A stretch of 64,000 nt of DNA, taken from positions 14,518-78,517 of the forward strand of contig QOPC01000002.1 in assembly GCA_003331545.1 (NCBI GenBank). The letters are read 5' to 3'. The notes beneath the pieces were generated by a model that saw only the letters and a program-made list of their open reading frames with translations, had not been told where the DNA came from and made no database searches. Source of the stretch: SAR86 cluster bacterium. Its GTDB lineage: Bacteria > Pseudomonadota > Gammaproteobacteria > Magnimaribacterales > D2472. Shown here in pieces: positions 4,097-54,712 of this stretch; within the stretch, counting starts at the first letter, position 1, and every line of letters begins with the position of its first letter. The position numbers and the translations under genes are program-made.

Positions 4097-4103
4097 CATA
4101 GCA

Positions 4104-9056: not shown

Positions 9057-9132
9057 AATTTCCCCCTATGGTTTGCATGGTTAGTTAACCTATAAAACCA
9101 TAAAAATAAACTAGGAACAATAAATGTGTATG

Positions 9133-9166: not shown

Positions 9167-9228
9167 GCATCCTATCAAAATAAATGATACTACTTATATA
9201 ATATAAGTGTTGTTTATTTAGTGATTGG

Positions 9229-38441: not shown

Positions 38442-41234
38442 ATGGATAAGAAGCCATATGATCCATCTGAAATAGAGAAAAAACTCTATCAAGAATGGGA
38501 GGAATCTGGTTTATTTAAACCCGATGACAGTCCAGATACATACTCTCTAGCTATACCTCCTCCAAATGTCACTGGCACCCTTCACATGGGCCATGGGTTT
38601 CAGAGCGCAATCATGGATTGTTTAATTCGATATCATCGGATGTCTGGTAAGAATACTTTGTGGCAAGTTGGAACTGATCATGCGGGTATCGCAACTGAGA
38701 TGGTTGTTGAGCGTCGTTTAAACGCTGAAGGCAAAACAAAAGAATCTCTTGGCAGACAAGCGTTTGAACAAAAAGTTTGGGATTGGAAGAAATATTCTGG
38801 TAATAAAATTACCGCCCAGCTAAGACGCTTGGGATCAAGTCTTGATTGGAGTTCTGAAAGATTTACATTAGATGATGATTACCAGAATGCTGTTATTAGT
38901 GCATTTATACAATTATTTGATGAGGGCCTCATTTATCAGGGCAAGCGACTGGTAAATTGGGATCCTGTTCTTGAAACATCTTTATCAGATTTAGAAGTTA
39001 TTAATAAAGATCAGGTAATTAAAATCTGGGAAATAAAATATCAACTCGAGGATTCAGGAGAATTTGTTACTGTTGCAACTACAAGACCTGAAACTCTTCT
39101 AGGAGATATGGCTTTGGCAGTTAATCCTAATGATCAAAGATTTATTCATCTTATTGGAAAGAATGCATCCATACCCTTATGCAACAGAATGATACCGATA
39201 GTTGCAGATGATTACGTAGATCCAGAGTTTGGAACAGGAGTTGTTAAGATTACTCCTGGGCATGACTTTAACGATTATGAGTTAGGTAAAAGACATGGTC
39301 TTCATATGGATAAGAATTCGCTTTGTCATGTAGGCGATGAGGATGCATTTGCACCTATATCAATACTTAATAAAAAAGTCGAGATCGTTGGCATAGCACC
39401 CAAAAAATTCCATGGAATGGATAGGTTTGATGCTCGTAAATTACTTTTAGAGGATTTGCAAAAAGAAAAACTTTTAATCTCTGAGGATAAATACGAGAGC
39501 AATCTGCCCTATGGAGATAGATCTGATCAAATTCTTGAACCGCTCCTCACAGATCAATGGTACGTGGATGCAAAAACCCTTGCGAAGCCTGCCATTGAGG
39601 CTGTGAAATCTAAAGAAATACAATTTGTGCCTAATAATTGGGAAAAAACTTATTTTCAATGGATGGATAACATCCAAGATTGGTGCATCAGCAGACAACT
39701 ATGGTGGGGGCACAGAATTCCAATTTGGTATGATGAGTCTAATCAACCTTATGCAGGGTTTTCTGAAAAAGACGTTAGGGAAAAGAATGATTTGCAAGGT
39801 AGCCTGCGTCAAGAAGAAGATGTTTTAGATACTTGGTTTTCGTCTAGTTTATGGACATTCGCTACCATGGGATGGCCGGATAAAAACGAGAAATTAAATC
39901 TCTTTCACCCGACAACCACTCTTGTAACAGGTTTTGACATTATCTTTTTTTGGGTTGCAAGAATGATTATGATGACCAAGCACTTAATGAAGGAGATTCC
40001 ATTCAATGAAGTCTATATTACCGGTCTTATAAAAGATGAAAATGGTCAAAAAATGTCCAAGTCAAAAGGAAACATTATTGATCCAATCGATCTAATTGAC
40101 GGGATTTCATTAGATGATCTGCTTCTTAAAAGAACAGAGGGACTGATGCAGCCTCAACTAAAAGACAAGATTATTAAACAAACAAGAAAACAATTCCCAG
40201 ATGGCATAGAAAGTTATGGCACTGATGCATTGAGATACACTTATTACTCTTTAGCCTCTCCTGGTCGAGATATTAACTTTGATATTGGAAGAATTAAAGG
40301 TTACAGAAACTTTTGTAATAAACTTTGGAATGCCTTTCGGTTTATCGAAATGCAAGCAATAAATCATGATTATCAAACTCAAGATAATACTTCTGACCTC
40401 CTTTCCGAGTGGATGGGAGCAAAATTAAAACAAACTTCAGATAGTTGCCAAGCACACATTAAAAATTATAGATTTGATCTTGCTTCAGCTGAAATATATG
40501 AATTAGTCTGGTCAAATTTCTGCGATTGGTATTTAGAATTTAACAAAGTGGCTATCCAAAAATCTGAAAATAAAACTCAAATCAATGAATTGATATCAAA
40601 TTTAATAGTAAATTTCTCTAATATTTTAGAGTTGCTGCATCCATTCATGCCGTTTATCACAGAAGAACTTTCAACTAAGTTAGCTTTATTATGCAAAAAG
40701 GAAAAGTCTGAATTTTTACTGCAATCAGGTTTTACAGATATTGGCTCAATAAATGAAAAATCAATGCATCAGTTAAATTATATTATTGATATTGTTACTG
40801 CGATTAGGGTAATTAGAGCAGAAAACCCCGGCATTAAAAACGAGGTCCTGCATCTTATAATTTCAACCGATATGAGTGCTGAAATGCAATCGTTAGTAGC
40901 AGAGCAAGAAAACATAATTTCAGGCATAGCAAGACTTGATGGGATTGAATTTGGTAATGAAGCACCAACTGAATCAATCGAAAAAACATTGGACGGATAC
41001 AAAATTATCATTCCATTAGAAGGTTTAATTAATCCTGAGGAGGAGCGTATTAGACTTCAAAAAGAACTCTCGAAATTAGAAAATGAGATAAAAAGAATAA
41101 GCTCTAAACTTGATAATGAGCAATTTATTGCTAAAGCGCCGGCTGAGGTAATTCAAAAGGAAAAAGAGAAAATTGAAGATGCTAAAAATAAGAAAAAAAT
41201 GTTAGAAAAGAGCATTCTCAATCTTGAGATTTAG
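38442..41234 (+). CDS. valS: Valine--tRNA ligase
   Basis: 930 aa. HIGH-type PPNVTGTLHMGH, KMSKS (QKMSKSKGN), and a C-terminal coiled coil. Confidence 0.98.
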   Translation: MDKKPYDPSEIEKKLYQEWEESGLFKPDDSPDTYSLAIPPPNVTGTLHMGHGFQSAIMDCLIRYHRMSGKNTLWQVGTDHAGIATEMVVERRLNAEGKTKESLGRQAFEQKVWDWKKYSGNKITAQLRRLGSSLDWSSERFTLDDDYQNAVISAFIQLFDEGLIYQGKRLVNWDPVLETSLSDLEVINKDQVIKIWEIKYQLEDSGEFVTVATTRPETLLGDMALAVNPNDQRFIHLIGKNASIPLCNRMIPIVADDYVDPEFGTGVVKITPGHDFNDYELGKRHGLHMDKNSLCHVGDEDAFAPISILNKKVEIVGIAPKKFHGMDRFDARKLLLEDLQKEKLLISEDKYESNLPYGDRSDQILEPLLTDQWYVDAKTLAKPAIEAVKSKEIQFVPNNWEKTYFQWMDNIQDWCISRQLWWGHRIPIWYDESNQPYAGFSEKDVREKNDLQGSLRQEEDVLDTWFSSSLWTFATMGWPDKNEKLNLFHPTTTLVTGFDIIFFWVARMIMMTKHLMKEIPFNEVYITGLIKDENGQKMSKSKGNIIDPIDLIDGISLDDLLLKRTEGLMQPQLKDKIIKQTRKQFPDGIESYGTDALRYTYYSLASPGRDINFDIGRIKGYRNFCNKLWNAFRFIEMQAINHDYQTQDNTSDLLSEWMGAKLKQTSDSCQAHIKNYRFDLASAEIYELVWSNFCDWYLEFNKVAIQKSENKTQINELISNLIVNFSNILELLHPFMPFITEELSTKLALLCKKEKSEFLLQSGFTDIGSINEKSMHQLNYIIDIVTAIRVIRAENPGIKNEVLHLIISTDMSAEMQSLVAEQENIISGIARLDGIEFGNEAPTESIEKTLDGYKIIIPLEGLINPEEERIRLQKELSKLENEIKRISSKLDNEQFIAKAPAEVIQKEKEKIEDAKNKKKMLEKSILNLEI

Positions 41235-42192
41235 TTTCTTGGCTTAAAAAATTTATAATAGGCAATGCGACCTTTGAGGGGTTTGCATAAGCTATGTCAT
41301 GTTTACCCTGATCAATTACCTCTAAGCTTGCATGAGGTAAACTCTGCATTAGTTTTTTGCTGCCAACAAAAGGAACTACTCCGTCATCAGTTCCCCATAT
41401 AGCTATTGTGGGAATTTTTTGCCTACCAAGATCTTCAAACATTTCCATGGCATCAAACAAATCAAAGTTTCGAACAGTAGATAACAATGCTTCGATAAAC
41501 CCCCTGTATTCCATCTGTATACTAAATTTTGTGACGAAATTTGATCCTGAAAAATCTACCCTACCATCAATATTTGTAGATTCATTTTGCACTTCATTTA
41601 AATAAAGACTTTTACCAAATAATTGCCAAAACCAATCTGCAGCAATTGGCATTACTGCCAGTCCATCAATTGAATTCTCTTTCATAAAACCAGCTGGCGC
41701 AATCAAAGAGATGCTTTTTACTGAGTGAGGATATTGCAAAGAAAAGTAGCCCACGACTGGTCCGCCCATAGAGTATCCAACGAGGTTTATTGGTTGAGAA
41801 ATATCGAGGTGATCAAGCAGCCCTTTTAAGGACTCTACATATAAATTTTGATCATATGTTACTGAAGGACGCTCAGAAAAACCTCTGCCAAAGTGATCGT
41901 AAACAAGAAGAGTGTATCCTGCGTTTGTAAAAAATTCTTTCATCTCGTCCCAGACAAAATGAGGAGTTGAGAACCCATGAACCAAAACAATAATTTCATC
42001 ATTAGAAGCTTCTTCATCAGGGTAATGCCATCGATAAAATAAGTTTCCCATTTCCAAGGGAGCCCATGCACCTTCAGAAGGAATATCATCTTGCATTAAT
42101 GTCTTTAAGCTATTTATTTTTATGAAGTAAGGTATGCCCAAAACTAAAATAAAAATTAATATTCCTATAATTATTTTCTTAGCAAACTTCAT
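41218..42192 (-). CDS. Membrane-anchored alpha/beta-fold hydrolase
   Basis: 324 aa. N-terminal TM helix (IIIGILIFILVLGIPYFI), oxyanion HGFSTP, nucleophile elbow GYSMGG, and C-terminal GKHD (His). The 3' end overlaps valS by 17 nt, convergently. Confidence 0.8.
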   Translation of the reverse strand: MKFAKKIIIGILIFILVLGIPYFIKINSLKTLMQDDIPSEGAWAPLEMGNLFYRWHYPDEEASNDEIIVLVHGFSTPHFVWDEMKEFFTNAGYTLLVYDHFGRGFSERPSVTYDQNLYVESLKGLLDHLDISQPINLVGYSMGGPVVGYFSLQYPHSVKSISLIAPAGFMKENSIDGLAVMPIAADWFWQLFGKSLYLNEVQNESTNIDGRVDFSGSNFVTKFSIQMEYRGFIEALLSTVRNFDLFDAMEMFEDLGRQKIPTIAIWGTDDGVVPFVGSKKLMQSLPHASLEVIDQGKHDIAYANPSKVALPIINFLSQETKSQD

Positions 42193-42236
42193 AATGCAAA
42201 TAAAAAAGCTTCTTAAAAATATCCATTAAGATAAAA

Positions 42237-43061
42237 CTAGCTTGCTGTATGTTTTTTAAAAGTATCTCCAGTAATTTTTAGCACTCTTGCTCTGGATAAA
42301 ATTCTTGGTAAAAATGCAAACTTTGAGTTTCCTTTTCCAGGAACAACGTAATGCTTGTTTTGCAAAAAAGCTTCTAAAGTTTCTTTGGAAACTCTATCGC
42401 AAGAGTCGCCGACATGACCTTCATCTTTCATTTTACTAATTCTTTTTTTTAATCTTTCAGATGACTTTTCAGATGCGATGTTTCTAAAATTTGAGTCTGT
42501 TGCTCCAGGACAAGAGGCCATGATCCGAATGTTTCTATCTGCGTATTCATAGCGAAGTGCCTCAGAGAACATCAGAACATAAGCTTTAGTAGATGAATAA
42601 ACACTTGCATATGGAACAGGCAAAAATGATGCTGATGAGCCAATATTGATGACTCCGCCCTCTCCTTTATTAGCCATTGCCGGCATAAATAAATGACATA
42701 GATCTGTAAGAGATGTAATATTTAATTGAATCATGTCCGCATAATCGTCTTTGGTAAAATCTTCAAATTTGCCCCATCTTCCGTAACCAGCATTATTTAT
42801 TAAAAGATCAACACTCAGATCAGCTTCTGCAATCTGATAATGTAATTTCTTAGCTGAACCTGGTTGAGCCAAATCTTCGGGATACACATAAGCTTTTCCA
42901 CCTTTTGCTTTAATTTGACTTGCTAAGACTTCTAATTGACTAAGAGATCGTGCAGTTAAAATTACTTCAGCACCACGATCAGCCAAATCATAAGCCATAG
43001 CTTTACCGATTCCACTTGATGCACCAGTAATAAGTGCAATCTTATTTTCATATGTATTCAT
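42237..43061 (-). CDS. Short-chain dehydrogenase/reductase (classical SDR)
   Basis: 274 aa. TGASSGIGKA, NNAG, and the catalytic YSSTK (YxxxK). Confidence 0.88.
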   Translation of the reverse strand: MNTYENKIALITGASSGIGKAMAYDLADRGAEVILTARSLSQLEVLASQIKAKGGKAYVYPEDLAQPGSAKKLHYQIAEADLSVDLLINNAGYGRWGKFEDFTKDDYADMIQLNITSLTDLCHLFMPAMANKGEGGVINIGSSASFLPVPYASVYSSTKAYVLMFSEALRYEYADRNIRIMASCPGATDSNFRNIASEKSSERLKKRISKMKDEGHVGDSCDRVSKETLEAFLQNKHYVVPGKGNSKFAFLPRILSRARVLKITGDTFKKHTAS

Positions 43062-43091
43062 GAGAAATCTCCATTTAAAAGCTTTTTGAAT

Positions 43092-45065
43092 CTATTTAAA
43101 CCATATAGGCGAGGACCAGACCCTTTCTTGGATTGTAGCAGGTATGTCCGATCTGGGTTTTTGACCATTTCTCACTGAATCCCACGTAGACCATCTACAA
43201 ACTGGATTCTCAAGAACTCTAGAATAATAAAATGCGCCTTGATTTTTTATAAACTCAGGATCTTGCCAAAAAACTTTCATTTCTCTCGCTCCAGAATCTG
43301 CACTAATCGAGCAATTACTTAAATCAACCCAAGCGTTATTATCGGGACAACGGTAAGTCTCAGGATCAACGCTCAGCCCGTCAGAACAAGCTATATCAAA
43401 AACCTTTTCTTTATGCTCTCCATCCTCTAACCACCCTTTGATAATTTGGGTTCTTTGCAATGGAGCTCCAACAGGATCAGCAATTGCCCATACTAAAAAT
43501 GTTGGATTTTTATTTGCTGAAATATTTAATGTTCCCCCCATTGGGATGCTGCTTCTATATGCATCTTGGATCAGTGAAAGATCATCTAATTTTGAATTCT
43601 CTAAATCATAACCAGCAAAAAATCTTACCTTCATTCTAGGGCCGCTGGTTGCAAATGTTTCCTTACGTTTAAGGGCATCATAGATAGCCTCACGAGTATT
43701 TTCTTCTGCCCAAACTCCAGCAAGACCAGAGGCAGCAAATTGAATCAGTCTGTCACTAGCAGAAAAATAGGTTTTTCCATCTACCTCCTTCAACATATTT
43801 GGCCTCAAAACTTTTAAGAAAGTTCCATAAAATCTGTTAAAGGGAATGGAGCCTCTTAGCTCAGCTGTGCCATCTAAAAGACCAACTTTAGAAAAGAAGA
43901 ATTCTTCACTATCTGAAGGTCCGCCAACATGAGAATCGCTTGATCCTATTAAACCAAATTTAAACGGATTGGTTAGACCTCTTTCAGCAAGGGTGAGACC
44001 TCTAAGATATGCATCTCTTACATAGCCTCCCTTTAAATTGCTTACAAGCTTTTCCGCCTCCACTCCAGTTTTAGCCTCAAAAGCTGCCCACTCATCATTT
44101 TTAGAAATCAGCGGATGAGTTTCTGATGTGCCTTTTACCTGGGTAATTTCAACTAATGGCTCATTAAGAGAGCGATTTTTAGCATACTCTTCATCAATCG
44201 GCCCACCGTTATAATCATTAAGAGAAAATGAAGCTCCCCCGGAATAATTTGTATTGTGCGGAATAGCTAGACTCTCAACTCCATTTGATCTTAATTTATT
44301 CATCCAATTCCATAATTCTTCAGGATCTTGGCTGTCATTTCTGGTGAAGAGTTGAGCAGGCAGGTTTTTTGTATCCTTAAATATGACATTACGATGCAAA
44401 TAATTATTGTAAAGATCTAAGCTGGGCGTATATTCATATGCAGCAAAACTGGTAAAACTACCAGGGACGTAAGCATCATCTGCTGCTTTAATGGTTTTCT
44501 GCCAGACCGTTCTGCCAACCTCTAATATCAAAGATCCATCAATACTGCCATCTGCAAGCCCTTCTCTAACATTTTCACCAAAGGGTCTAAATAGACCATT
44601 TCTTTTAATAAGAGAAAAAAATCCGGTGCCTCCTGACTCATTGAGATTATGCAGAGGCTTAGTAAATTCATACTTTGAAAACTCAGAAGTCGTATCCGCA
44701 GCCTCCTTCATCAATCCCATAAAGATGCCATGATCTGTTACTGCATAGAAATCTAAAGGTTTACTTAACTGAATCAGGTACCCGCTTGGATGCTGTATTG
44801 CATGACCTTGAGCATACTTGTATGCATCAGCAGGAGTGCTAATTGTGCCAAAAGTATAAGCATCAAATGAATTTTCTGTATGAACATGCAAATCACCAAA
44901 ATATGCATTTTTGTCTGGATTGGGAAGTGGTCTAGGTTGAGGTTGTACCTCTATTAAAGGTTTATCGTGCAAAGATACTGCAAGATTTTTTGAGTTATTC
45001 ACATCGGTGCATGATGCGATAATTAACATCAAGACTAATAACAAAATATTATTCATCTTCATCAC
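43092..45065 (-). CDS. Exported lipoprotein, DUF3604-type (PHP-like putative metallohydrolase), paralogue 1
   Basis: 657 aa. Lipobox LIIASC. A His/Asp ladder: GDLHVHTENSFDAY, DFYAVTDHG, YLHRNVIF, IPHNTN, QVKGTSETHP, GLIGSSDSH. A 4-Cys C-terminal module ends in SSPIWF. The layout matches what I recall for DUF3604. Needs HMM confirmation. Confidence 0.7.
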   Translation of the reverse strand: MMKMNNILLLVLMLIIASCTDVNNSKNLAVSLHDKPLIEVQPQPRPLPNPDKNAYFGDLHVHTENSFDAYTFGTISTPADAYKYAQGHAIQHPSGYLIQLSKPLDFYAVTDHGIFMGLMKEAADTTSEFSKYEFTKPLHNLNESGGTGFFSLIKRNGLFRPFGENVREGLADGSIDGSLILEVGRTVWQKTIKAADDAYVPGSFTSFAAYEYTPSLDLYNNYLHRNVIFKDTKNLPAQLFTRNDSQDPEELWNWMNKLRSNGVESLAIPHNTNYSGGASFSLNDYNGGPIDEEYAKNRSLNEPLVEITQVKGTSETHPLISKNDEWAAFEAKTGVEAEKLVSNLKGGYVRDAYLRGLTLAERGLTNPFKFGLIGSSDSHVGGPSDSEEFFFSKVGLLDGTAELRGSIPFNRFYGTFLKVLRPNMLKEVDGKTYFSASDRLIQFAASGLAGVWAEENTREAIYDALKRKETFATSGPRMKVRFFAGYDLENSKLDDLSLIQDAYRSSIPMGGTLNISANKNPTFLVWAIADPVGAPLQRTQIIKGWLEDGEHKEKVFDIACSDGLSVDPETYRCPDNNAWVDLSNCSISADSGAREMKVFWQDPEFIKNQGAFYYSRVLENPVCRWSTWDSVRNGQKPRSDIPATIQERVWSSPIWFK

Positions 45066-46411
45066 TCATTGCCTAAACGTTTAAATATTTCTTCTTTTAT
45101 GAGCCACATTCTATCCTGTCCCCAAACGTAAAAAGGATTGCCTCCATCTTGGTCAGTAATCTTAAAACTTGGCACTCCCCAACAATTTCCAGCATACATA
45201 TCTTCAACATTATCATTAAGAATTTTTTTCCAATGCTTGGTATTTAAATCTTTCTTAACTATCTGCCAATCAAGTCCAAGATCACCTATCAAGTTTTCTA
45301 AAAAAACTTCATCGCCAATATTAATTCCATCCTGAAATGATGCTTTTAATAATGCCTCTATGTATTCAAAACCTTTGCCTGCCTCATCGATAACCGGAAA
45401 CAATGAATAGGATTTTCTGGCCGGCTTTCCAATTGGTGAAAAAATAGACTGCATTTCATGGCCATGCCTTCTTCCCTCTCTAGCAGCATCTGAAATGATA
45501 TATTTTGCTTTAAAAGTTGGAATAGTCATCATGCGCATAAGCATTGGCAATACTGGTTTTGTAATAAGGTTTACTGGGTAATCCTCACGAATTTGTCTAA
45601 CCCTTTTAGTGCTTACAAAAGTATATGGGCTATTCAAAGAAGGATAGTAATATAAATTTATCTTAGTATCTGAAGTTAATTGATCTGGGGCTTGTAACTC
45701 TAAAGGGCAAATTTTTTGGCATTCTTTAGACTTTTTTGCACCTAAATCAGAAAGTCGTTCCTCTAAATGAGGTAAGCGATCTACACCCCAGTAAAGTTCC
45801 TTTTCATAATAAAATGCAGATCCAAAATAGTAACCTTTTGCATCTCTTATCTCATTTCCCTGAATTAATTTCTCCCTAACCTGTTTCTTGGTTGAGAAAA
45901 AAGATGATGACAACTCATCAAGAGCATCAGCATCATCTTCCCACAAAGCAGCACTAACCGAGCTCGCAATCTTGGCAAAATCTTCTTCCTTTACTGATGA
46001 AAGGATTGAATTGGCTTTATCTATCAATTTTTTTTCAGGATACTCCTGAGCATTAAAATTTACACCATAAAAAGGTGCTATGCGTTGCACATCTCGCAAA
46101 CAATAAATATTGTATAGAGAGGGTTCATGGATCGCGTCAAGGTTCTCTTCTCCAACAAGAATTGGTTTTAGAATAATATCAAAAGAGGATTGGAATTTTG
46201 CAATGCATTGAACCGTTAGGTGTGAATATGGATCATCAACTTTGTGGAAATACAAAACCTCATGGGGTCTCTGCTCTTTTTGTCTTAAGGTTTCAGAATT
46301 GACTCGAATATCACTGAAAATTTTATAATTAGAAAATGAGTTCATAACCTTATTTCTTGCTTTGGCGCTTATCGTTCGCCTTGTCATAAAATTTCTAAAA
46401 GCTTGAATCAT
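45062..46411 (-). CDS. Tandem DsbA-like / 2-hydroxychromene-2-carboxylate isomerase-family protein (two thioredoxin-fold domains, no CxxC)
   Basis: 449 aa. Two repeats of the family N-terminal strand-loop with S/D-P-Y replacing CxxC (LYFHKVDDPYSHL and LYYYPSLNSPYTFV). C-terminal GNCWGVPSFKI resembles the family GVPTF motif. No signal peptide. ATGA overlap with the downstream gene. Confidence 0.62.
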   Translation of the reverse strand: MIQAFRNFMTRRTISAKARNKVMNSFSNYKIFSDIRVNSETLRQKEQRPHEVLYFHKVDDPYSHLTVQCIAKFQSSFDIILKPILVGEENLDAIHEPSLYNIYCLRDVQRIAPFYGVNFNAQEYPEKKLIDKANSILSSVKEEDFAKIASSVSAALWEDDADALDELSSSFFSTKKQVREKLIQGNEIRDAKGYYFGSAFYYEKELYWGVDRLPHLEERLSDLGAKKSKECQKICPLELQAPDQLTSDTKINLYYYPSLNSPYTFVSTKRVRQIREDYPVNLITKPVLPMLMRMMTIPTFKAKYIISDAAREGRRHGHEMQSIFSPIGKPARKSYSLFPVIDEAGKGFEYIEALLKASFQDGINIGDEVFLENLIGDLGLDWQIVKKDLNTKHWKKILNDNVEDMYAGNCWGVPSFKITDQDGGNPFYVWGQDRMWLIKEEIFKRLGNE

Positions 46412-46468
46412 TTTAAAATTTAGTTTTGCCCTTTTTCAGCATAGTATATGCAAAGTTTCATTTGTAGT

Positions 46469-46487
46469 CTTACTTAAATAAAGTAAG
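46469..46487. promoter_or_regulatory. Inverted repeat (candidate operator) in the divergent control region
   Basis: CTTACTT-aaata-AAGTAAG, with 7-bp perfect arms, lies 34 nt upstream of the 46522 start codon. A second short palindrome, GCATA-gta-TATGC, is at 46439..46451. Confidence 0.3.
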
Positions 46488-46521
46488 TTAAAATAGACTG
46501 AAACATTTAAAGGGCGGGAAA

Positions 46522-48603
46522 ATGAAACTTAGCAAATCTACAATTGGATTGATTGTTGTAACAATAATCTTTTATCTTTATGCAACTAACTCTCTAAGCA
46601 TTTTTCAAAGTGATTCAGCTTTGGAGGTTGTAGACTTTTCGATAGATAGACAAACAGAAACAAATATTGTGTCCTCTAAACCTGATCGGGTTCCTCTTTA
46701 TGGTGACTTGCATGTCCACACAAAATATTCTTTTGATGCATATATTTTTGGTGTGACTGCAACTCCATATGATGCATATAGATATGCGACTGGTGAGACC
46801 ATTAAGCATCCCTTAGGATTTGATATGAAATTAAAAGAACCTTTAGATTTTTATGCAGTTACTGATCATGGTTTTTATATGGGAATGATAGAAAACTATG
46901 CAGACACTTCATCAGAGATGTCTAAAAATGAATGGACCAAACCAATGCATAACCTTAATAGGCCTGAAAATGTAACGGTTGAATCTCTTGGTGCAAGAGC
47001 TGATCTATTTAGCTCTGTGTTAACACAAGCTATTATAAAACCTTACCCTTGGTGGCATCCAAATTATATTGGTGCGTGGTTAACTAATAATATTCAGTTA
47101 GCTCTTCAATCATTTGATTATGACGTGCACAAATCCGCTTGGGCAGACGTTGCAAATGCGGCCGAGGAATTCAATGATCCAGGGAAATTTACCACATTTA
47201 TTGGCTATGAATTCACAACTTCAACAGATGTGGAAGGTGGTAATTTACATAGAAATGTTATTTTTAATTCCTCGAATGCTCCAATCAGACCCTGGACCAG
47301 AATCGATTCAATAAACCCAGAAGATCTTTGGACATGGATGGATGGGTTAAGAGATAAAGGCGTTGATTCGTTAGCTATGCCTCACAATAGCAATGGTTCT
47401 AATGGTCAAATGTTTGAAGTAGAAACCTTTAGAGGCAATCCAACCAGCATAGAGTATGCTGAAAAGCGAATGAGAAATGAGCCAGTTGTTGAAGTAACGC
47501 AAGTTAAAGGTACATCTGACACACATCCACTCCTTTCCCCAGATGACGAATGGGCAGATTTTGAAATCATGGATAAAAGAGTTGGTAGCAGGCCACCAAC
47601 ATACAGCATGCCTCAAGGAGGCTATGTTAGGGATGCATATTTAAGAGGTTTAACTTTAGATTGGGAAGGTCGAGGAAATCCTTATAAATTCGGGCTGATT
47701 GGCTCAAGCGATACACATACTGGTGCTGGAGGTTTTGATGAAGACAATTATTGGTCTAAGGCTGGAGTGCTAGATGGGACTGATATGGGAAGAGGAAGTG
47801 TGCCATTAACACAAGATCGAATCGATCAACTTAATGAATATGCTGATCTCTATGATCAACCCATAAGCATTAAAGAAATTGATGGAAGAACTTATGCAGA
47901 TGTTGGATTTGATCAATGGAGTGCATCAGGGTTAGCTGTAGCTTGGGCAGAAGAGAATACTCGAGATTCCATTTTTCAAGCCTTTAAAAGAAAAGAAACA
48001 TTTGCAACAACTGGAACTAGAATGGCTGTAAGGTTCTTTGCTGGTTTTGATATGGATTCAATAGATTTAAATTCTGAAGATATGGTAAGTAATGCCTATG
48101 AAAAAGGCGTTACTATGGGCGCCGACCTATTTAGCCAAAATAATCAAACACCACAGTTTTTAGTATGGGCTCAGCGCGATAAATTAGGGGCTCCCCTTCA
48201 AAGAGTGCAAATAATTAAAGGCTGGGTTGAGAATGCATCAGGAACTCCAAAAGAAAAAGTTTATGATGTGGCGTGTTCAGATGGTCTGTCAGTAGATCCC
48301 TTGACTAATCGTTGTCCTGATAATGGTGCTCGAGTAAATATTAGTGATTGTTCTATTTCTAATGATGTTGGAGCTGGAGAGTTAAAAACTACTTGGACAG
48401 ATCCTGATTTTGATCCAACTGTGAAGGCTTTTTATTATGTACGAGTTTTAGAGAATCCAAGTTGTAGATGGTCTACATGGGATGCACTTAAGGCTGGAGT
48501 TTCACCAAGGCCTGATCTTCATAAGACAATTCAAGAACGTGCATGGTCCTCTCCTATCTGGTATATACCAGAGTCGAGTGAACTAAATATAATTCCGTTA
48601 TAA
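46522..48603 (+). CDS. Exported DUF3604-type (PHP-like putative metallohydrolase), paralogue 2
   Basis: 693 aa. N-terminal hydrophobic signal/anchor (IGLIVVTIIFYLYA). It has the same motif ladder as paralogue 1 (GDLHVHTKYSFDAY, DFYAVTDHG, NLHRNVIF, MPHNSN, QVKGTSDTHP, GLIGSSDTH) and the same 4-Cys C-terminal module. By eye it is roughly half identical to paralogue 1 over the alignable blocks. Confidence 0.7.
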   Translation: MKLSKSTIGLIVVTIIFYLYATNSLSIFQSDSALEVVDFSIDRQTETNIVSSKPDRVPLYGDLHVHTKYSFDAYIFGVTATPYDAYRYATGETIKHPLGFDMKLKEPLDFYAVTDHGFYMGMIENYADTSSEMSKNEWTKPMHNLNRPENVTVESLGARADLFSSVLTQAIIKPYPWWHPNYIGAWLTNNIQLALQSFDYDVHKSAWADVANAAEEFNDPGKFTTFIGYEFTTSTDVEGGNLHRNVIFNSSNAPIRPWTRIDSINPEDLWTWMDGLRDKGVDSLAMPHNSNGSNGQMFEVETFRGNPTSIEYAEKRMRNEPVVEVTQVKGTSDTHPLLSPDDEWADFEIMDKRVGSRPPTYSMPQGGYVRDAYLRGLTLDWEGRGNPYKFGLIGSSDTHTGAGGFDEDNYWSKAGVLDGTDMGRGSVPLTQDRIDQLNEYADLYDQPISIKEIDGRTYADVGFDQWSASGLAVAWAEENTRDSIFQAFKRKETFATTGTRMAVRFFAGFDMDSIDLNSEDMVSNAYEKGVTMGADLFSQNNQTPQFLVWAQRDKLGAPLQRVQIIKGWVENASGTPKEKVYDVACSDGLSVDPLTNRCPDNGARVNISDCSISNDVGAGELKTTWTDPDFDPTVKAFYYVRVLENPSCRWSTWDALKAGVSPRPDLHKTIQERAWSSPIWYIPESSELNIIPL

Positions 48604-48619
48604 ATTTTAGGAAACTGAG

Positions 48620-49423
48620 GTGAATCTTAGAATAGTTGTATTTTTTGCAATTGGACTATTAATTTTTTTCCTTGATATTGCATTCAATTCCGAGCAAAAC
48701 TCAAAAGACATTTATCTTTCAGACCAAGAGTTATCTAGCCTTCTTACAGCATGGCAATCACAAGTTGGTAGGCCTCCAAGCGATGAAGAAATAGCAAATA
48801 TCATTAACAACTTTGTTCAAGAAGAGATTCTATATAGAGAAGCATTACTCTTAGATTTAGATCAAGAAGATCGAATAATTAAAAGAAGATTGGCGCAAAA
48901 AATTACTTTCTTAAAACAAGAAACAATTCCAGATGATCCATCGCAAGAAGAATTAGAAAAATTTTTTGAGCAAAATAAAAAAAACTACTATGTTCCAGCA
49001 ACATACTCTTTCTCTCATCACTATTTTTCTAAAGAATCTAATGCCAAAGAAAGGGCTGTGAAGGCTTTTAATGATTACCAAGCCAATCAAGCTGAATTAA
49101 CAGGCGATCCCTTTTTTCTAGGAAAAAATTTTTATCAAAGTAGCTCAAATGACATAAAGAAAAATTTCGGTGAGTTATTCTTTGTAGCTATTAAAAACCT
49201 TACTTTAAATGAGTGGTCTGGACCTCATGAATCTGCTTTTGGACAGCACATCATTAAATTGAAAGAAGTTAAAACTGGATTTTACCCTTCTCTAGAACAA
49301 GTGCTGTTAAAAGTTCAACAAGATTATCTTTCGCAGTCTCAAGATAAAGCAGTTGCTGAATATATCAATGAAATCAGATCTCAATACAGAGTAATAATTA
49401 ATCCAAATTATAAGTTCAAATGA
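48620..49423 (+). CDS. Membrane-anchored PpiC/Rotamase-type peptidyl-prolyl isomerase-like protein (GTG start)
   Basis: 267 aa. N-terminal TM helix. GDPFFLG and the parvulin-like WSGPHESAFGQHIIKLKEV block. Confidence 0.62.
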   Translation: MNLRIVVFFAIGLLIFFLDIAFNSEQNSKDIYLSDQELSSLLTAWQSQVGRPPSDEEIANIINNFVQEEILYREALLLDLDQEDRIIKRRLAQKITFLKQETIPDDPSQEELEKFFEQNKKNYYVPATYSFSHHYFSKESNAKERAVKAFNDYQANQAELTGDPFFLGKNFYQSSSNDIKKNFGELFFVAIKNLTLNEWSGPHESAFGQHIIKLKEVKTGFYPSLEQVLLKVQQDYLSQSQDKAVAEYINEIRSQYRVIINPNYKFK

Positions 49424-50373
49424 CTTATAAGCTTGCTAAAACATTAGTAATACTATTTTGTTCAACTGTACTTTTCTCTCATGAATTTAATCCAGCTCAC
49501 TTAGTCATAAATGAGCTAAATGAAAATGAATACCAAGTTAGTTGGATGTACCCTATTAAAAATATTGGTGCTAGAGCAGAAGTTTTTTTTCCTGAGAGTT
49601 GCGATAGAAAGAGCCAATTACCAAGTCAGAAGGGAAAATATCTAGTTGAAAAAATATTGTTAAATTGTGAAAGCTCCCTAAAAGGTCAAATGATTTCAGT
49701 CAATAATCTGAGTGTGCTCACAGATGCATTGATAACGATAACTCACTCTAATGGCGAGGTGTTTGAAGGGTTGATGAACCTCAAGAGATCATCGATAGAG
49801 ATTCCATTAAAAGAGCAAGTCTACCCCATTGGATACTTCACGTTAGGTATTGATCATTTATTAAGTGGCAATGACCACATTCTCTTCATCCTAGGATTAC
49901 TTTTTTTGATTTCTGGATTTTTTAATGCAGTTAAAACAATTACAGCTTTCACTCTTGCTCACAGTATTACCTTGGGCTTATCAGTGTTTGAGTTAGTTTC
50001 ACTGCCTCAAGCTACCGTCGAAGCTATTATCGCACTTACTATCATTTTTCTTGCATTAGAGGTAAGTGAAAATAAAAAATATAAGGCTACGCCCTGGCTC
50101 ATTGCATTTGGCTTTGGATTGCTGCATGGACTAGGCTTTGCTAATGCCCTAACGGGAATTGGTATTGGGAATGAGCAGCTATTACTTTCTTTGCTGTTCT
50201 TTAATTTGGGTATTGAAGCTGGTCAGCTTATGTTAGTTCCAATATTTGGATCAGTAATCTGGCTGGCTCATAAATTTAACTTCTATAAGCAATCTGCTAC
50301 CCTCACCTCATTGATTTTAGGTGGCATGGGTTTTTTCTGGCTTATCGATAGAGTTACTGGAATCTTGGGGTAA
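49420..50373 (+). CDS. HupE/UreJ-family membrane protein (HupE_UreJ_2-like) with N-terminal periplasmic extension
   Basis: 317 aa. Signal peptide, then HEFNPAH. The C-terminal half has 5-6 TM helices with the GIDHLLSGNDHILFILGLL signature. ATGA overlap with the upstream gene. Confidence 0.68.
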   Translation: MTYKLAKTLVILFCSTVLFSHEFNPAHLVINELNENEYQVSWMYPIKNIGARAEVFFPESCDRKSQLPSQKGKYLVEKILLNCESSLKGQMISVNNLSVLTDALITITHSNGEVFEGLMNLKRSSIEIPLKEQVYPIGYFTLGIDHLLSGNDHILFILGLLFLISGFFNAVKTITAFTLAHSITLGLSVFELVSLPQATVEAIIALTIIFLALEVSENKKYKATPWLIAFGFGLLHGLGFANALTGIGIGNEQLLLSLLFFNLGIEAGQLMLVPIFGSVIWLAHKFNFYKQSATLTSLILGGMGFFWLIDRVTGILG

Positions 50374-50389: not shown

Positions 50390-51358
50390 TTAGAAATTAC
50401 CTAATCTCTTTCCAATAATTGCATCCGCTTCGTTCATGATCCCGTCGATTAACTCTTGTACTGTTGGAATATCGTTGACTAATCCAGCAACCATTCCACA
50501 AGACCAAGCCCCAACTTCCATTGTGCCCTCATGCATGATTTTTGGATAAACACCGGCAACCTCATCAGCAATATCTTGAAAAGTTAGCTGATCTCCTAAT
50601 GCAGCTTCTTTTTCCATAAGGCGTTCTACGGCTTCATTATTTAATACTCTTTCAGTATTTCTCAGAGAACGCATAATTAATCTGGTATCTAATTCAGATG
50701 CATTCACGATTGAATCCTTAACATTTTGATGAACAGGAGCTTCTTGAGTAGCTATAAATCTAGTGCCCATATTCATGCCCTCTGCTCCAAGAGCCATGGC
50801 TGCAACTAAACTTCTCGCATCAGCCATTCCACCAGAGGCAACAAATGGGATTTCAAGTTCATCAGCAGCTCTTGGTAGAAGAATAAAATTAGGAATGTCA
50901 TCTTCTCCAGGATGCCCGCCACACTCAAAACCATCTACTGAAACTGCATCACAACCAATTGATTGAGCTTTTAAAGAATGTCTTACTGAGGTGCATTTAT
51001 GAATCACCTTGATACCAGCTTCTTTAAGAGCTGGTAAATACTCAGCAGGGTTTCTACCAGCTGTTTCAACAATTGGAACATCTCCACCAATAATTACATC
51101 TACCAATCCTGGATAATCTGGAGGGGTTAAGGAAGGTAAAAAAGTGAGATTCACGGCAAAGGGTTTATCGGTCATCTCCTTGCAACGAGCTATCTCATTG
51201 GCAAGCTTTTCAGGGGTTCCTTGCGTTAAACCAGTAATTGTTCCAAGCCCGCCTGCATTTGATACTGCTGCAGCCAGCTCAGCAAAGCCAACATGATGCA
51301 TCCCGCCCTGAATAATGGGGTGCTTAATACCAAATAATTCTGTAATTTTAGTTTTCAT
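50390..51358 (-). CDS. NAD(P)H-dependent flavin oxidoreductase, nitronate monooxygenase/FabK-like (NMO family)
   Basis: 322 aa. Motifs KHPIIQGGMHHVGFAELAAAVSNAGGLG and GAEGMNMGTRF. Confidence 0.85.
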   Translation of the reverse strand: MKTKITELFGIKHPIIQGGMHHVGFAELAAAVSNAGGLGTITGLTQGTPEKLANEIARCKEMTDKPFAVNLTFLPSLTPPDYPGLVDVIIGGDVPIVETAGRNPAEYLPALKEAGIKVIHKCTSVRHSLKAQSIGCDAVSVDGFECGGHPGEDDIPNFILLPRAADELEIPFVASGGMADARSLVAAMALGAEGMNMGTRFIATQEAPVHQNVKDSIVNASELDTRLIMRSLRNTERVLNNEAVERLMEKEAALGDQLTFQDIADEVAGVYPKIMHEGTMEVGAWSCGMVAGLVNDIPTVQELIDGIMNEADAIIGKRLGNF

Positions 51359-51370
51359 AGTCTCTCCTCT

Positions 51371-52159
51371 TTATTTCATGTCTACAGGGGTTAAAAAATC
51401 TTCATATTGTTTTTGCAGCCTTTGCATTCCTGAAATCCATCGATCTCTGTCGTTACCTTTTCTTGCAACATATTCAGCCACTTCTGTATGCGGAAGTACT
51501 AAAAATTTTTCTTCTGCAATACATCTTAAAACTTCTTGCGCAACCACATCTGGTTCCATCATCCCATCAACTCCCGCAACACCTGGACCCTGAGCGGTCA
51601 TTGCAGTTCTCACTGCTTGAGGACATAAACATGAAACACCTATACCCTTTTCACCATAGGTAATTTTAATCCATTCAGCAAAACTTACTGCAGCTGCTTT
51701 AGTGACTGAATAGCCTGCTGCGCCTAACTGAGTTAAAAGGCCAGCTGCAGAAGATGTATTTACCAAATAGCCTTCTCCCCTTTCGATCATTTGAGGGAGG
51801 ACATGCTTGGCTGCAAAGATATGAGATTGGACATTCACATCCCAAATATTTTGCCAATCAGATGCATTTACTTCAAAAAATCCTGGCACACCTCCAATAC
51901 CAGCATTTGAGCAATAAATGTCTATTCCTCCAGCATGCTCATCTGACTTTTCAATAATGTTAATAGTATCTTCCTCACTACCGACATTAGCTTTAATTGC
52001 AATCCCATTAACTGAATCAGCTGTTTCTTGCGCTCCATCTAAATTAATATCCACGGCTACTATGGATTGAGCTTTAGCCTCATGAAAAGCTTCACAAAGA
52101 GCTTTTCCAATTCCACTAGCTGCACCAGTAACAACAATCCTTTTATTTTTTACATCCAT
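51371..52159 (-). CDS. Short-chain dehydrogenase/reductase
   Basis: 262 aa. TGAASGIGKA, NAG, and YSVTK (YxxxK). TAATG overlap with the upstream gene. Confidence 0.88.
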   Translation of the reverse strand: MDVKNKRIVVTGAASGIGKALCEAFHEAKAQSIVAVDINLDGAQETADSVNGIAIKANVGSEEDTINIIEKSDEHAGGIDIYCSNAGIGGVPGFFEVNASDWQNIWDVNVQSHIFAAKHVLPQMIERGEGYLVNTSSAAGLLTQLGAAGYSVTKAAAVSFAEWIKITYGEKGIGVSCLCPQAVRTAMTAQGPGVAGVDGMMEPDVVAQEVLRCIAEEKFLVLPHTEVAEYVARKGNDRDRWISGMQRLQKQYEDFLTPVDMK

Positions 52160-53211
52160 TAATTTATCTCAGTGATTATTATTTCATCTGAGTCTAATGG
52201 CAAAACAGCCATAGTTCCATCATTTGCTGAAGTCCAATCTGTTCTAATTTCATTTACGCCTCTATAAAACATTCTCTCCATGACGCCGATTCTCGGCGCA
52301 GGAGTTAAATGATAGAAAATTAAATGGTCAACATTTGCTAAATTAGCTGCCTTGGCAGCATCAATTGGAGTTGTATGATAACTCTCTATATCATTCAATA
52401 TTTTTAAAAGACCTTTATTAGAAGACAAAGCTTCTTTCATTATTTCCAATTGATGATTCGCCTGTGCCTCATGAAATAGTACATCTGCATCTTGAGCATT
52501 TTTTATTAAGTTTTCACTATAAGATGTGTCTCCGCTAATAACTATCGACCTGCCTCCATACTCAAAGCGATAGCCTAGGGCAGGCTCAATTGGCTCATGT
52601 GTTACCTGAAAGGCTGTTACTATTAAACCGTTTTCATTAATGATTACTGAACTATTTAAATCAATAGTATGTGGGGTAAAACCAGCAATATTTATCGGAG
52701 CAATTTCATCTCCATGATGCTCATTTCTAAACTGATAATCTAACTTATAGGCATCTTCAAACCCATTAATTACTGACTCAACACCATTTGGGCCATAAAC
52801 ATCCATGGGTTTTGTTCGAGTGGAGTTAATCCATGTCATTAAATGCAAATCTGCAAGATCTGATATGTGATCAGAGTGAAGATGTGTTAACAAAGTAGCT
52901 CGAATTTTATTAGCATCAACTCTCCAATTATTCAGGTTTGCTGCACTGCCATCACCAATATCAACTACGTAATAATTACCGCCCGCATTAACTAGAATAC
53001 ATGTTTGTGCTCTTCCAGGAGATGGAATTGGAGATCGAGAGCCACAAACTAAAGCTGATAAAGAATCGTCATTAAGGTCTGCTGTGCTCGCCAATAAATT
53101 TTGAGCAACTACAGACATCAATCGGTCTTGAAAACTTGGTAATCTGATGAGAATAGAGATTAAGACAATAATGATTACAACGATTAAAAAAATGTACTTT
53201 ATTGTTTTCAT
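52159..53211 (-). CDS. Membrane-anchored MBL-fold metallohydrolase (RNase Z/beta-lactamase-like)
   Basis: HxHxDH motif (THLHSDHISD) with later His/Asp ligands. N-terminal TM helix. I start it at the ATG at 53211 (MKTIKYIF...), 4 nt after the upstream stop. The track ORF extends to 53247. Confidence 0.82.
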   Translation of the reverse strand: MKTIKYIFLIVVIIIVLISILIRLPSFQDRLMSVVAQNLLASTADLNDDSLSALVCGSRSPIPSPGRAQTCILVNAGGNYYVVDIGDGSAANLNNWRVDANKIRATLLTHLHSDHISDLADLHLMTWINSTRTKPMDVYGPNGVESVINGFEDAYKLDYQFRNEHHGDEIAPINIAGFTPHTIDLNSSVIINENGLIVTAFQVTHEPIEPALGYRFEYGGRSIVISGDTSYSENLIKNAQDADVLFHEAQANHQLEIMKEALSSNKGLLKILNDIESYHTTPIDAAKAANLANVDHLIFYHLTPAPRIGVMERMFYRGVNEIRTDWTSANDGTMAVLPLDSDEIIITEIN

Positions 53212-53215
53212 AATT

Positions 53216-53608
53216 TTATGGCTCTTTTGAAATTCTCGATCCAGCAAAGATTAAAAACAATCCCACACTTATTTCAACAACAATCGCTGGCAAAACAAAT
53301 GGAGCTCCGTATATGGCAGTTGAAAGAGTTCTGAATAATGCTGCTACCAATAACAGCATTGATGGAGCATAAAACCAATGACGAGTTTGTGAAAGGGCTC
53401 CAATTAGTGTCATAGCGCCTACAGTTATGAAGAAACTTCCCATATCCCCAATTTGAGTGCTCAGCCCAACTCCCTCTAATAAGGGCATGCCCAATTGCGC
53501 TGCAATATTTGCAGGAGCAATAATCCACTGAAGTCCATTTATTAAAAATAAGGTCCCTAAAAGACCTGCGACCACTCTTAAGGTATTTTTCATTTTTTCT
53601 CCTTTCAA
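53216..53608 (-). CDS. Four-TM membrane protein, unknown function (possibly DUF4345-like)
   Basis: 130 aa with four hydrophobic helices. The family assignment is tentative and from memory of the size and topology only. Abuts the upstream gene with 0 nt spacing. Confidence 0.5.
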   Translation of the reverse strand: MKGEKMKNTLRVVAGLLGTLFLINGLQWIIAPANIAAQLGMPLLEGVGLSTQIGDMGSFFITVGAMTLIGALSQTRHWFYAPSMLLLVAALFRTLSTAIYGAPFVLPAIVVEISVGLFLIFAGSRISKEP

Positions 53609-54712
53609 CTATTTTATAAGATTAACAATAATGCCTTCATTTGGATTAATTTTTCCATCAACCATTTCTTCATAAGTGCTGATAAAATTTTCTAAACCAT
53701 GAATCTCTTTCACTTGCATCCAATTTTTACTTTGAAGTGCTCTAGAAGTCATGAACGAATTTGTTTTTTGCGCATAACCATCATGCCCCCAGTCCCCAAT
53801 TCGCTTTTGGATGTGAGCTGGCGCAAAAAAGAATTCAGTTCTATCTCTGAGCATTGCTTGGCCTAAAGCATCTTCTGCAGTGGTCTCGTTATCCCAATGA
53901 GTCATGCCCACAGTGAGGCACTTAAGCATGTTATCACCCAGCTCCCCATGGAGAGTTCCAAGAATTTCTCGATTACCAGCCATATCAACCATCACAGAAC
54001 CCATTAAATAATCTACATTACTAAGCTCATCGTAAGAGATAACTTCATCATAACAGCCAAGGTTTTCCACAAACTTTAAGTTTGATGAAGATGTAAGTCC
54101 AACTATTTTTGGTGTATTTTCAGTATCAGCTAAACCTTGAGCCAGACCAATGGCAGTTTTACTCGAAGCGCTAACTATAATTACTTGGGATGCTCCAAGG
54201 TATGAATCTTCGGCCAAAGAGTCGCATAAACAAAATGCTGTAATATGGAGTGGGAATAAAAGAGCTCTGACTGCATCCATGGATGGATCGTAATTTTGAT
54301 CTCCATTTAGCCTCACATAATTATTGTAAACCGGCGGGAGTTCTTTACGGTGTTCTTTGCCATCACTGAAACTTTGATCTGAGACTTTAATCGGACTTAA
54401 AGTTAATGAGTCAGAAGCTGGAAAATAGCCAAAGAGTCTTTCTCCGACATTCAAACCCTCAATATTTGAGTGGGTAATTTCAGCAAACCCCCACATAGGT
54501 ATGCAGCCCCATTCATTGTCTGCATTATTTTTAGCTGGAAAAAATTTCCAATAACCAATCGTATCTCCCGCGACGCCATAAGTGACGTTATTAGCTGTAA
54601 ATGCAAAGCTTTCAATCTTGACTGCAATCTCATCATCATGAATAGAAACTGAATCAGTATCTACAATTCTTGAATGAGTTAAATCAGATTTTAAAGTTTG
54701 AAATTGACTCAT
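53609..54712 (-). CDS. DUF2855-like protein (MDR/alcohol-dehydrogenase-like fold, unknown function)
   Basis: 367 aa. The N-terminal IAVKIESFAFTANNVTYGVAGDTIGYWKFFP block matches the pattern I recall for DUF2855. There is a Rossmann-like VIIVSASSKTAIGLA. Needs HMM confirmation. Confidence 0.55.
   Translation of the reverse strand: MSQFQTLKSDLTHSRIVDTDSVSIHDDEIAVKIESFAFTANNVTYGVAGDTIGYWKFFPAKNNADNEWGCIPMWGFAEITHSNIEGLNVGERLFGYFPASDSLTLSPIKVSDQSFSDGKEHRKELPPVYNNYVRLNGDQNYDPSMDAVRALLFPLHITAFCLCDSLAEDSYLGASQVIIVSASSKTAIGLAQGLADTENTPKIVGLTSSSNLKFVENLGCYDEVISYDELSNVDYLMGSVMVDMAGNREILGTLHGELGDNMLKCLTVGMTHWDNETTAEDALGQAMLRDRTEFFFAPAHIQKRIGDWGHDGYAQKTNSFMTSRALQSKNWMQVKEIHGLENFISTYEEMVDGKINPNEGIIVNLIK

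Follow-up and report, generated by a model that had tools for sequence, protein, structure and literature searches.

We have found a conserved three-gene unit that codes for a DUF3604 protein, a PpiC-like protein of the Rotamase_2 family and a HupE/UreJ-like (hereafter HupE-like) protein of the HupE_UreJ_2 family. The unit was found in a 64,000-nt stretch of contig QOPC01000002.1 from a SAR86 cluster bacterium (G+C content ∼35%); this whole stretch is called the window, and coordinates given without a locus identifier are window positions. An initial annotation of the window had grouped seven genes, lying on both sides of a common control region, into one system around two paralogous DUF3604 genes. 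Comparison across genomes demonstrates that the conserved unit is the triad at 46522–50373, with extra DUF3604 paralogues where these occur, rather than the seven-gene divergon. What we propose for the triad, with confidence somewhat better than even, is an exported PHP-type metallohydrolase provided with a dedicated folding and metal-supply pair and hydrolysing an ester-type substrate in the periplasm.

To define the unit, 80 DUF3604 loci were retrieved, by means of an alignment of 30 sequences, from a collection in which each species is represented by one genome (a few genomes gave more than one locus); partners of DUF3604 were detected by iterated hidden Markov model (HMM) searches in which the seven window proteins were run against every six-frame open reading frame (ORF) of these loci. 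An adjacent pair of PpiC-like and HupE-like genes stands beside DUF3604 in 33 of the 80 loci, while the expectation by chance, for a gene with one or two copies in each genome, is less than one locus. When only loci with at least 3 kb on each side are counted, the pair is present in 25 of 59; the distance to the DUF3604 gene is 300 bp or less in 24 loci. The PpiC-like gene precedes the HupE-like gene in 32 of the 33 pair loci (in the remaining one, L059, the two are split around DUF3604), and in most pair loci the two genes overlap by 4 nt. The order of the triad genes varies (DUF3604–PpiC–HupE, PpiC–HupE–DUF3604 or divergent) and the linkage is kept. Carriers of the triad include SAR86 and other Pseudomonadales, Hyphomonas, sphingomonads, Rhizobium, Ensifer, Pseudomonas sp. 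GM48 and the PS1 clade, as well as one metagenome-assembled genome (MAG) each of Acidimicrobiaceae and Thermoanaerobaculia, and a Flavobacterium. The triad thus spans Gamma- and Alphaproteobacteria, Acidimicrobiia, Thermoanaerobaculia and Flavobacterium, i.e. at least four phyla. The co-occurrence of DUF3604 genes with the two presumed helper genes, put forward as a check in the initial annotation, turned out to be strong and to cross phylum boundaries.

In the reverse direction, look-ups from six HupE-like proteins encoded on long contigs gave DUF3604, Rotamase_2 and HupE_UreJ_2 genes in a row in all six cases; the flanking genes vary with the lineage, yet four of the six have a similar context (TrkH, ELFV dehydrogenase and Usp), so these are not six independent cases. 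Several loci (e.g. L010, L013, L022 and L084) combine a single pair with two to five nearby DUF3604 copies, which stand in tandem or no more than a few kb apart. In Flavobacterium sp. NORP82 (L084, 210–17346) five tandem paralogues are followed, ∼3.5 kb further on, by one PpiC-like/HupE-like pair.

The genes of the window locus are as follows:

41218–42192, minus strand: alpha/beta hydrolase, 324 aa, membrane-anchored (PF00561, E 1.4e-26)
42237–43061, minus strand: short-chain dehydrogenase/reductase (SDR), 274 aa, cytoplasmic (PF00106, adh_short, E 1.5e-50)
43092–45065, minus strand: DUF3604 lipoprotein paralogue, 657 aa (PF12228, E 3.5e-218)
45062–46411, minus strand: DSBA-fold protein, 449 aa (PF01323, E 5.7e-13)
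46412–46521: divergent intergenic region, 110 bp between the two operons
46522–48603, plus strand: DUF3604 protein, 693 aa, first gene of the triad (PF12228, E 9.8e-224)
48620–49423, plus strand: PpiC-like protein, 267 aa, second gene of the triad (Rotamase_2, PF13145, E 3.2e-12)
49420–50373, plus strand: HupE-like protein, 317 aa, third gene of the triad (HupE_UreJ_2, PF13795, E 3.1e-42)

The seven ORFs, their strands, the 110-bp control region and the gaps between genes (30 nt from the minus-strand DUF3604 gene to the SDR gene, 44 nt from there to the hydrolase gene, 16 nt from the plus-strand DUF3604 gene to the PpiC-like gene) agree exactly with the initial annotation, and Pfam returned every family named there (DUF3604 twice, DSBA, Rotamase_2, HupE_UreJ_2, adh_short and Abhydrolase_1). 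Two ATGA overlaps had been claimed; the one at the PpiC-like/HupE-like junction stands, while the DSBA/DUF3604 junction reads GAG-TGA-TG, which is a 4-nt GTGA overlap with GTG as the start and a 1-nt overlap with the ATG that follows. In an NCBIfam scan of the seven proteins no equivalog cut-off was reached and no specific name was obtained; the hits of the alpha/beta hydrolase all fell far short of theirs. A single N-terminal hydrophobic segment is present in the plus-strand DUF3604 protein, the PpiC-like protein and the hydrolase; none was seen when the SDR and the DSBA-like protein were inspected for such a segment.

Genes of the window other than the pair are far less linked to DUF3604; with the high linkage of the pair, this is why the triad and not the group of seven is taken as the unit. 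When all neighbours up to 6 kb from DUF3604 were clustered against one another, SDRs were found in 15 of the 80 loci, TonB-dependent receptors in 11, FMO-like proteins and enoyl-CoA hydratases in 9 each, and acyl-CoA dehydrogenases and sulfatases in 8 each. DSBA-like genes occur near DUF3604 in five of the 80 loci, plus close SAR86 relatives, and homologues of the alpha/beta hydrolase in about eight. The view of the SDR and the hydrolase as linked partners did not hold: 15 loci with an SDR compare with 33 for the pair. In SAR86 relatives whose plus-strand DUF3604 protein is 89% identical to that of the window, the order SDR–DUF3604–DSBA is found on one strand and DUF3604–Rotamase_2–HupE_UreJ_2 on the other. 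In four of these loci (L001–L004) a glutathione S-transferase (GST) gene (9032–9874) is located between the DSBA-like gene and the divergent region, and a gene for an NAD-dependent epimerase (3855–4835) takes the place of the alpha/beta hydrolase gene, which argues against a seven-gene unit and indicates that the edges of the cluster turn over within the lineage. The SDR gene is kept beside the lipoprotein paralogue in L001–L004. The SDR is a SAR86 neighbour and not a conserved DUF3604 partner; the alpha/beta hydrolase is probably a variable neighbour outside the system. Both the SDR gene and the epimerase gene are split into fragments in L002 and L004.

Both window DUF3604 proteins score well above the PF12228 cut-off (744.6 and 726.3 bits vs 20.4; profile positions 1–591) and are 51% identical over 637 residues in BLASTP. 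Six motifs reported previously were recovered in both paralogues in the same order: GDLHVHT-x2-SFDAY, DFYAVTDHG, LHRNVIF, PHN(T/S)N, QVKGTS(E/D)THP and GLIGSSD(S/T)H. Export signals had been assigned to both proteins, and each has one: the minus-strand copy contains a lipobox (LIIAS↓C, Cys19) and is a predicted lipoprotein, while the plus-strand copy starts with a hydrophobic export signal or anchor (aa 3–21), followed by a PHP-like barrel (∼aa 55–520) and a C-terminal beta-sandwich (∼aa 530–683) with four Cys residues. Among the N-termini of ∼200 full-length homologues there are 69 with a lipobox, 113 with another hydrophobic segment, 13 with an RR-like motif and 5 with none of these; judged by such signals the family is mostly exported. 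The four Cys of the C-terminal domain covary, being all present in 68 and all absent in 12 of 80 homologues, and this all-or-none pattern fits two disulfides formed in an oxidising compartment.

An 80-sequence alignment was used for the AlphaFold2 model of the DUF3604 protein (pLDDT 87.9, pTM 0.90) and for residue conservation. Nine residues (H64, H66, D72, H116, E230, H243, H288, D397 and H399) are invariant across the 80 homologues; in the model they are placed on or just past successive strands, as PHP ligands are. The sole significant PDB match of the model in Foldseek was 3e38_B (E 1e-4, probability 1.0, TM-score 0.47, root-mean-square deviation 13.6), which spans both domains; the C-terminal 150 residues show a weak resemblance to Ig-like beta-sandwiches. 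The match and the nine invariant His/Asp/Glu residues support the PHP-like fold suggested in the initial annotation. Structure 3e38 is BVU_3505 of Bacteroides vulgatus, a structural genomics entry described as a ‘two-domain protein containing predicted PHP-like metal-dependent phosphoesterase’; it has the same combination of a PHP-like barrel and a beta-sandwich, whereas identity is 11%, the TM-score on target is 0.47 and 3e38 is half as long (343 aa). Since 3e38 is itself uncharacterised, no function is transferred from it. In an hhalign comparison with E. coli YcdX, GDLHVHTxxSxDAY is paired with VDLHMHTVASTHAYS, so that H64, H66 and D72 fall onto H7, H9 and H15 of YcdX; the probability is 14.7% and the match covers motif I only. 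We predict that DUF3604 proteins are PHP-like multinuclear metallohydrolases, an assignment that is well supported but short of proven because neither the Pfam PHP model nor any PDB chain is matched at the sequence level.

The label ‘phosphoesterase’ is not implied. Carbaryl hydrolases of the CehA/McbA family (NCBIfam NF038032), which are also exported PHP-like metallohydrolases, cleave a carbamate ester; as this is a non-phosphate ester, the PHP-like fold is not limited to phosphoesters. Membership of the window DUF3604 proteins in that family was considered and rejected, the match being sub-threshold (E 0.0027, 17 bits against a cut-off of 80) and seen for one paralogue only. The DUF3604 family is large: a search of 1.84 billion cluster representatives (50% identity) gave 8,421 matches with E ≤ 0.001, of which 1,053 reach E ≤ 1e-30. 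That it has no experimentally assigned function agrees with our literature search on DUF3604, PF12228 and IPR022028, which found no biochemical characterisation and one incidental mention, in a transposon table, of Chlamydia trachomatis CT_425. This gene (CT_425/CTL0684), whose annotated product is a DUF3604 protein of 622 aa, tolerated a transposon inserted at the last codon (PMC11925237); the family thus extends to obligate intracellular bacteria.

The PpiC-like protein scores 47.7 bits with PF13145 (cut-off 27). It consists of a transmembrane anchor (aa 3–21), a conserved, helical chaperone-like region and a parvulin domain (aa 107–228; window 48938–49303). The parvulin core FG..F...W.GP..S..G.H is conserved in 35 homologues; H210 is invariant and a His at position 133 or 134 is partly conserved. 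The profile of the protein matches Cbf2/PEB4 (3rfw) at 8e-10, as well as HP0175, SurA and PrsA (range 8e-10 to 3e-5). The protein resembles, and is predicted to be, a membrane-anchored parvulin chaperone of the PEB4/SurA/PrsA kind. It shares the combination of a chaperone region and a parvulin domain with PEB4/Cbf2 of Campylobacter jejuni, HP0175 of Helicobacter pylori, SurA, PrsA and PpiD. The anchor is an N-terminal membrane segment, as in PpiD, while that of PrsA is a lipid. In contrast to these proteins, which are general foldases, the window parvulin is encoded by a gene tied to one enzyme family and translationally coupled to the gene of a predicted metal-binding membrane protein.

The HupE-like protein matches PF13795 with 144.3 bits (cut-off 24.5) at aa 139–283, and PF04955 weakly (E 1.2e-5). 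Its layout is a signal peptide (aa 1–20), His21, a predicted periplasmic beta-sandwich from aa 21 to ∼130 (window 49480–49810) and a helical membrane domain (aa 136–316). The signal peptide ends directly before the His (cleavage site ...VLFS↓HEFNPAH), so the mature chain begins with His. The same arrangement, a signal peptide followed by H-[EKL]-x-[RNA]-P (mostly H-E-x-R/N-P), was found in 31 of the 32 HupE-like homologues examined at DUF3604 loci. The lone homologue without the motif (L014, 1318–2289) has the apparent mature N-terminus ADDIQP.... Invariant positions in 65 HupE-like sequences are H21, E22, P25, W42 and, in the membrane domain, H146, D152, H153, H181, H236 and E266. The N-terminal domain matched no Pfam family; the AlphaFold2 model (pLDDT 90) shows a beta-sandwich at 26–127 followed by the helical membrane domain. 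Its best PDB match in Foldseek is ZrgA of Vibrio cholerae (8ezw/8f1b, E 2e-4, TM-score 0.60), while RbAng-1a (9gce) is ranked fourth with probability 0.99 but E 0.047 and TM-score 0.38.

The initial annotation overlooked this beta-sandwich with an N-terminal His, which resembles a Cu/Ni-binding class described in 2025 in Nature Communications (PMC12537917). Structure 9GCE shows the Ang-1 domain of a HupE/UreJ-2 protein with Cu bound; the domain binds metal with a ‘mono-histidine brace’ through His1 (Kd 74 nM for Cu2+ and 220 nM for Ni2+) and was proposed to fish for metal and to feed the permease. There too the closest structure to RbAng-1a is ZrgA. In the neighbourhood counts of that paper Rotamase_2 is listed only three times, and DUF3604 was not found in the supplement text that was searched. 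The window protein has in common with the Ang-1/Ang-2 anglerase-HupE/UreJ-2 proteins a signal peptide, a mature N-terminal His, a predicted periplasmic beta-sandwich and a PF13795 membrane domain, whereas its N-terminal domain is ∼60 residues shorter (∼115 aa vs ∼175 aa). At E ≤ 1, 9GCE was recovered neither by phmmer with the HupE-like protein nor by a profile of 21 sequences. We read the window protein as belonging to a separate subfamily with the anglerase-HupE/UreJ-2 architecture, because of the shorter domain, the absence of sequence similarity to 9GCE and the different genomic partner.

With these parts the proposed mechanism would operate as follows. The DUF3604 protein, predicted to combine a PHP-like (beta-alpha)7 barrel with a disulfide-bonded C-terminal beta-sandwich, would be exported unfolded by the Sec pathway, and the second copy would take the lipoprotein pathway. 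The anchored parvulin would hold and fold the DUF3604 chain at the membrane; the HupE_UreJ_2 protein would capture or conduct a divalent metal and pass it to the PHP site; and the mature enzyme or enzymes would hydrolyse an ester-type substrate in the periplasm. The second paralogue would probably share the helper pair. Judging directly from the comparative data, the DSBA-fold protein, the SDR and the hydrolase are lineage-specific cytoplasmic or membrane neighbours that do not belong to the conserved module. From the observed protein families, export signals, fold resemblance, conserved ligands and cross-phylum linkage we infer the physical interactions, the metal, the direction of its flow and the chemistry of the triad. 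A further and more tentative proposal is that the parvulin and the His1-beta-sandwich/HupE_UreJ_2 protein may form a membrane complex, a dedicated folding-and-metallation machine for Sec-exported PHP-type hydrolases, of which one pair may service several paralogues.

Known systems give partial parallels. HupE/UreJ genes are located in hydrogenase and urease operons, and the Ni/Co permeases of this type are, like the window protein, encoded together with the metalloenzyme they are thought to supply; the differences are that the window client is predicted to be periplasmic and that the Pfam family is another one (PF13795). In E. coli, YcdY is reported to aid the PHP enzyme YcdX, and ycdX adjoins ycdY, which is annotated as a chaperone in RefSeq. 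In YcdX as in DUF3604, strand 1 ends in HxH and an S-x-(H/D)-A-Y turn comes next; DUF3604 has a nine-residue His/Asp/Glu ladder, and in both systems the enzyme gene is located beside a helper gene. Unlike the cytoplasmic YcdX, DUF3604 proteins are exported, are ∼650 aa long with large insertions and an extra beta-sandwich, and do not match the Pfam PHP model; their putative helpers, a parvulin and a predicted metal-binding membrane protein, differ from the TorD-like chaperone of the YcdX system.

Several observations weigh against the proposed mechanism. The most serious is the direction of transport: HupE/UreJ proteins are seen as importers towards the cytoplasm, and such import would give no direct supply to a periplasmic client. 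The PHP assignment is based on one Foldseek match of modest TM-score (0.47) and on the hhalign motif match at 14.7%; a Pfam scan of DUF3604 at E ≤ 10 returned nothing but DUF3604, with the PHP model unmatched, and searches of PDB chains, by phmmer with one sequence or with a profile of 30, returned nothing meaningful. In 47 of the 80 DUF3604 loci there is no helper pair within 10 kb. Inspection by eye of the regions upstream of 30 triad operons revealed no common Zur, Fur or Pho-type box.

The DSBA-fold protein was described as a tandem DsbA-like protein. The DSBA fold stands: PF01323 is matched with 49.5 bits at aa 256–442, i.e. in the C-terminal half only, and the two halves can be aligned in register (21% identity, E 0.012), which makes the tandem architecture plausible. 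The protein has DPYS and SPYT at the active-site positions and no CxxC. With neither CxxC nor a signal peptide it is not a periplasmic disulfide catalyst, and the candidate role of a DsbA oxidase, acting on the four Cys of DUF3604, was rejected for the same reasons. The protein is cytoplasmic by sequence and of the HCCA-isomerase/kappa-GST kind. The gene is translationally coupled to the DUF3604 lipoprotein gene; this linkage is lineage-restricted. The SDR (171.9 bits) and the alpha/beta hydrolase (94.1 bits) both score above the Pfam gathering score.

Four other explanations were considered. Chance packing of the triad genes in a compact genome is extremely unlikely; SAR86 genomes are indeed dense and scans for promoters and terminators were uninformative, yet the triad was found in 33 of 80 loci across phyla, with the order rearranged and the linkage kept, and in all six reverse look-ups. 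The E-values and the cross-species linkage exclude chance, so that adjacency by chance is effectively refuted for the triad, and it is still plausible for the alpha/beta hydrolase and the SDR. One could also suppose that all seven genes make a single catabolic pathway, where the ester cleaved by DUF3604 in the periplasm would be lipid-derived or aromatic and its products would be passed on to the hydrolase, the SDR and the isomerase/GST-like DSBA-fold protein. The tightly spaced SDR–DUF3604–DSBA arrangement is kept in SAR86 relatives, coupling of DSBA to DUF3604 is seen in L037 as well, L034 and L045, both alphaproteobacterial, have a DSBA-like gene at a distance of 4–8 kb from the triad, and the surroundings are rich in GST, SDR, sulfatase and MBL-fold genes. 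Still, tight gene spacing is the norm in streamlined SAR86 genomes, the swap of the hydrolase for an epimerase and the GST insertion occur in relatives at 89% identity, only 5 of 80 loci have the DSBA-like gene, and the SDR and hydrolase are no commoner than other catabolic neighbours. We consider such a pathway quite improbable.

The remaining two explanations concern what the membrane protein transports. If the triad were a metal acquisition system, the HupE_UreJ_2 protein would import the metal and DUF3604 would free the ion in the periplasm by hydrolysing a chelating organic ligand or metallophore. HupE/UreJ and Ang-1/Ang-2 proteins are interpreted as uptake systems (PMC12537917), and the HupE-like N-terminal domain resembles the Zur-regulated zinc-binding ZrgA; TonB-dependent receptors are within 6 kb in 11 of 80 loci, and a FUR-family gene is ∼7 kb away in L085. 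This explanation, which we find unlikely, leaves the dedicated foldase unaccounted for; besides, two to five DUF3604 paralogues per pair look like a catabolic enzyme that has diversified in its substrates and not like one step of release, many DUF3604 genes occur on their own, and a common Zur- or Fur-type operator is missing upstream. It is very doubtful that the HupE_UreJ_2 protein transports the product of DUF3604 or another non-metal solute, with the parvulin as a general chaperone in an enzyme-plus-transporter unit. Hydrolase-plus-permease operons are common, and the assays in PMC12537917 covered the soluble domain only; nevertheless, the invariant His1, the conserved His, Asp and Glu of the membrane domain and the binding of metal by the related domain point to a metal ion as the ligand.

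The divergent region contains a perfect 7-bp inverted repeat, CTTACTT-N5-AAGTAAG (46469–46487). It is not conserved in L001, L005 and L006, with which only a TAAAAT-like element is common; promoter and terminator scans of the window locus gave results at or below shuffled expectation. Upstream of DUF3604 in L001 there are three GTGTCA(T/A) direct repeats with 12–14 bp spacing.

Some further features were observed around the window locus and in other loci. A 930-aa ORF (38442–41234, plus strand), a valyl-tRNA synthetase by its sequence motifs, converges with the hydrolase gene, and the 3′ ends overlap by 17 nt. On the minus strand at 50390–54712, 3′ of the HupE-like gene, there are genes for a nitronate monooxygenase-like protein (NMO), an SDR, an MBL-fold hydrolase with an N-terminal transmembrane segment, a 130-aa membrane protein of no family and a DUF2855 protein; this run is also kept in SAR86 relatives, where a sulfatase gene, DUF1330 genes and several GST genes come next. 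In L088 the end of the HupE_UreJ_2 gene shares 4 nt with a sulfatase gene (PF00884, 6981–8405), which makes a triad with a fourth gene for an exported hydrolase. On a gammaproteobacterial contig (L086, 1–4980) the triad directly follows a cytochrome c maturation operon (ccmC–ccmH), another periplasmic cofactor-insertion system. In L007 a tRNA-like sequence (GGAGAGGTGGCCGAGTGGTCGAAGGCGC...) is located directly upstream of the DUF3604 gene (∼9900–10000), and the PpiC-like gene is present while no HupE-like ORF was detected.

All seven window proteins belong to catalogued families, and a metalloenzyme gene placed beside metal and folding accessory genes follows a known logic. The triad itself, the breadth of its distribution and its link to an exported PHP-like client family of no known function appear to be undescribed; a description of the DUF3604–PpiC–HupE_UreJ_2 combination was not found in the searchable literature. 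The idea of an enzyme accompanied by its maturation factors, advanced in the initial annotation together with tests that might refute it, survives those tests. It also offers a candidate client enzyme for the anglerase-HupE/UreJ-2 architecture, for which the 2025 paper identified none (PMC12537917). The DUF3604 family is abundant in marine heterotrophs such as SAR86; the triad gives an experimental entry both to the target of a periplasmic hydrolase in the dissolved organic matter of the ocean and to the question of how enzymes exported unfolded obtain the right metal outside the cytoplasm. If the proposal of a folding-and-metallation complex is true, the parvulin and the HupE_UreJ_2 protein would represent a previously undescribed class of extracytoplasmic metalloenzyme maturation systems, one by which an enzyme folding in the periplasm would be provided with the correct metal.

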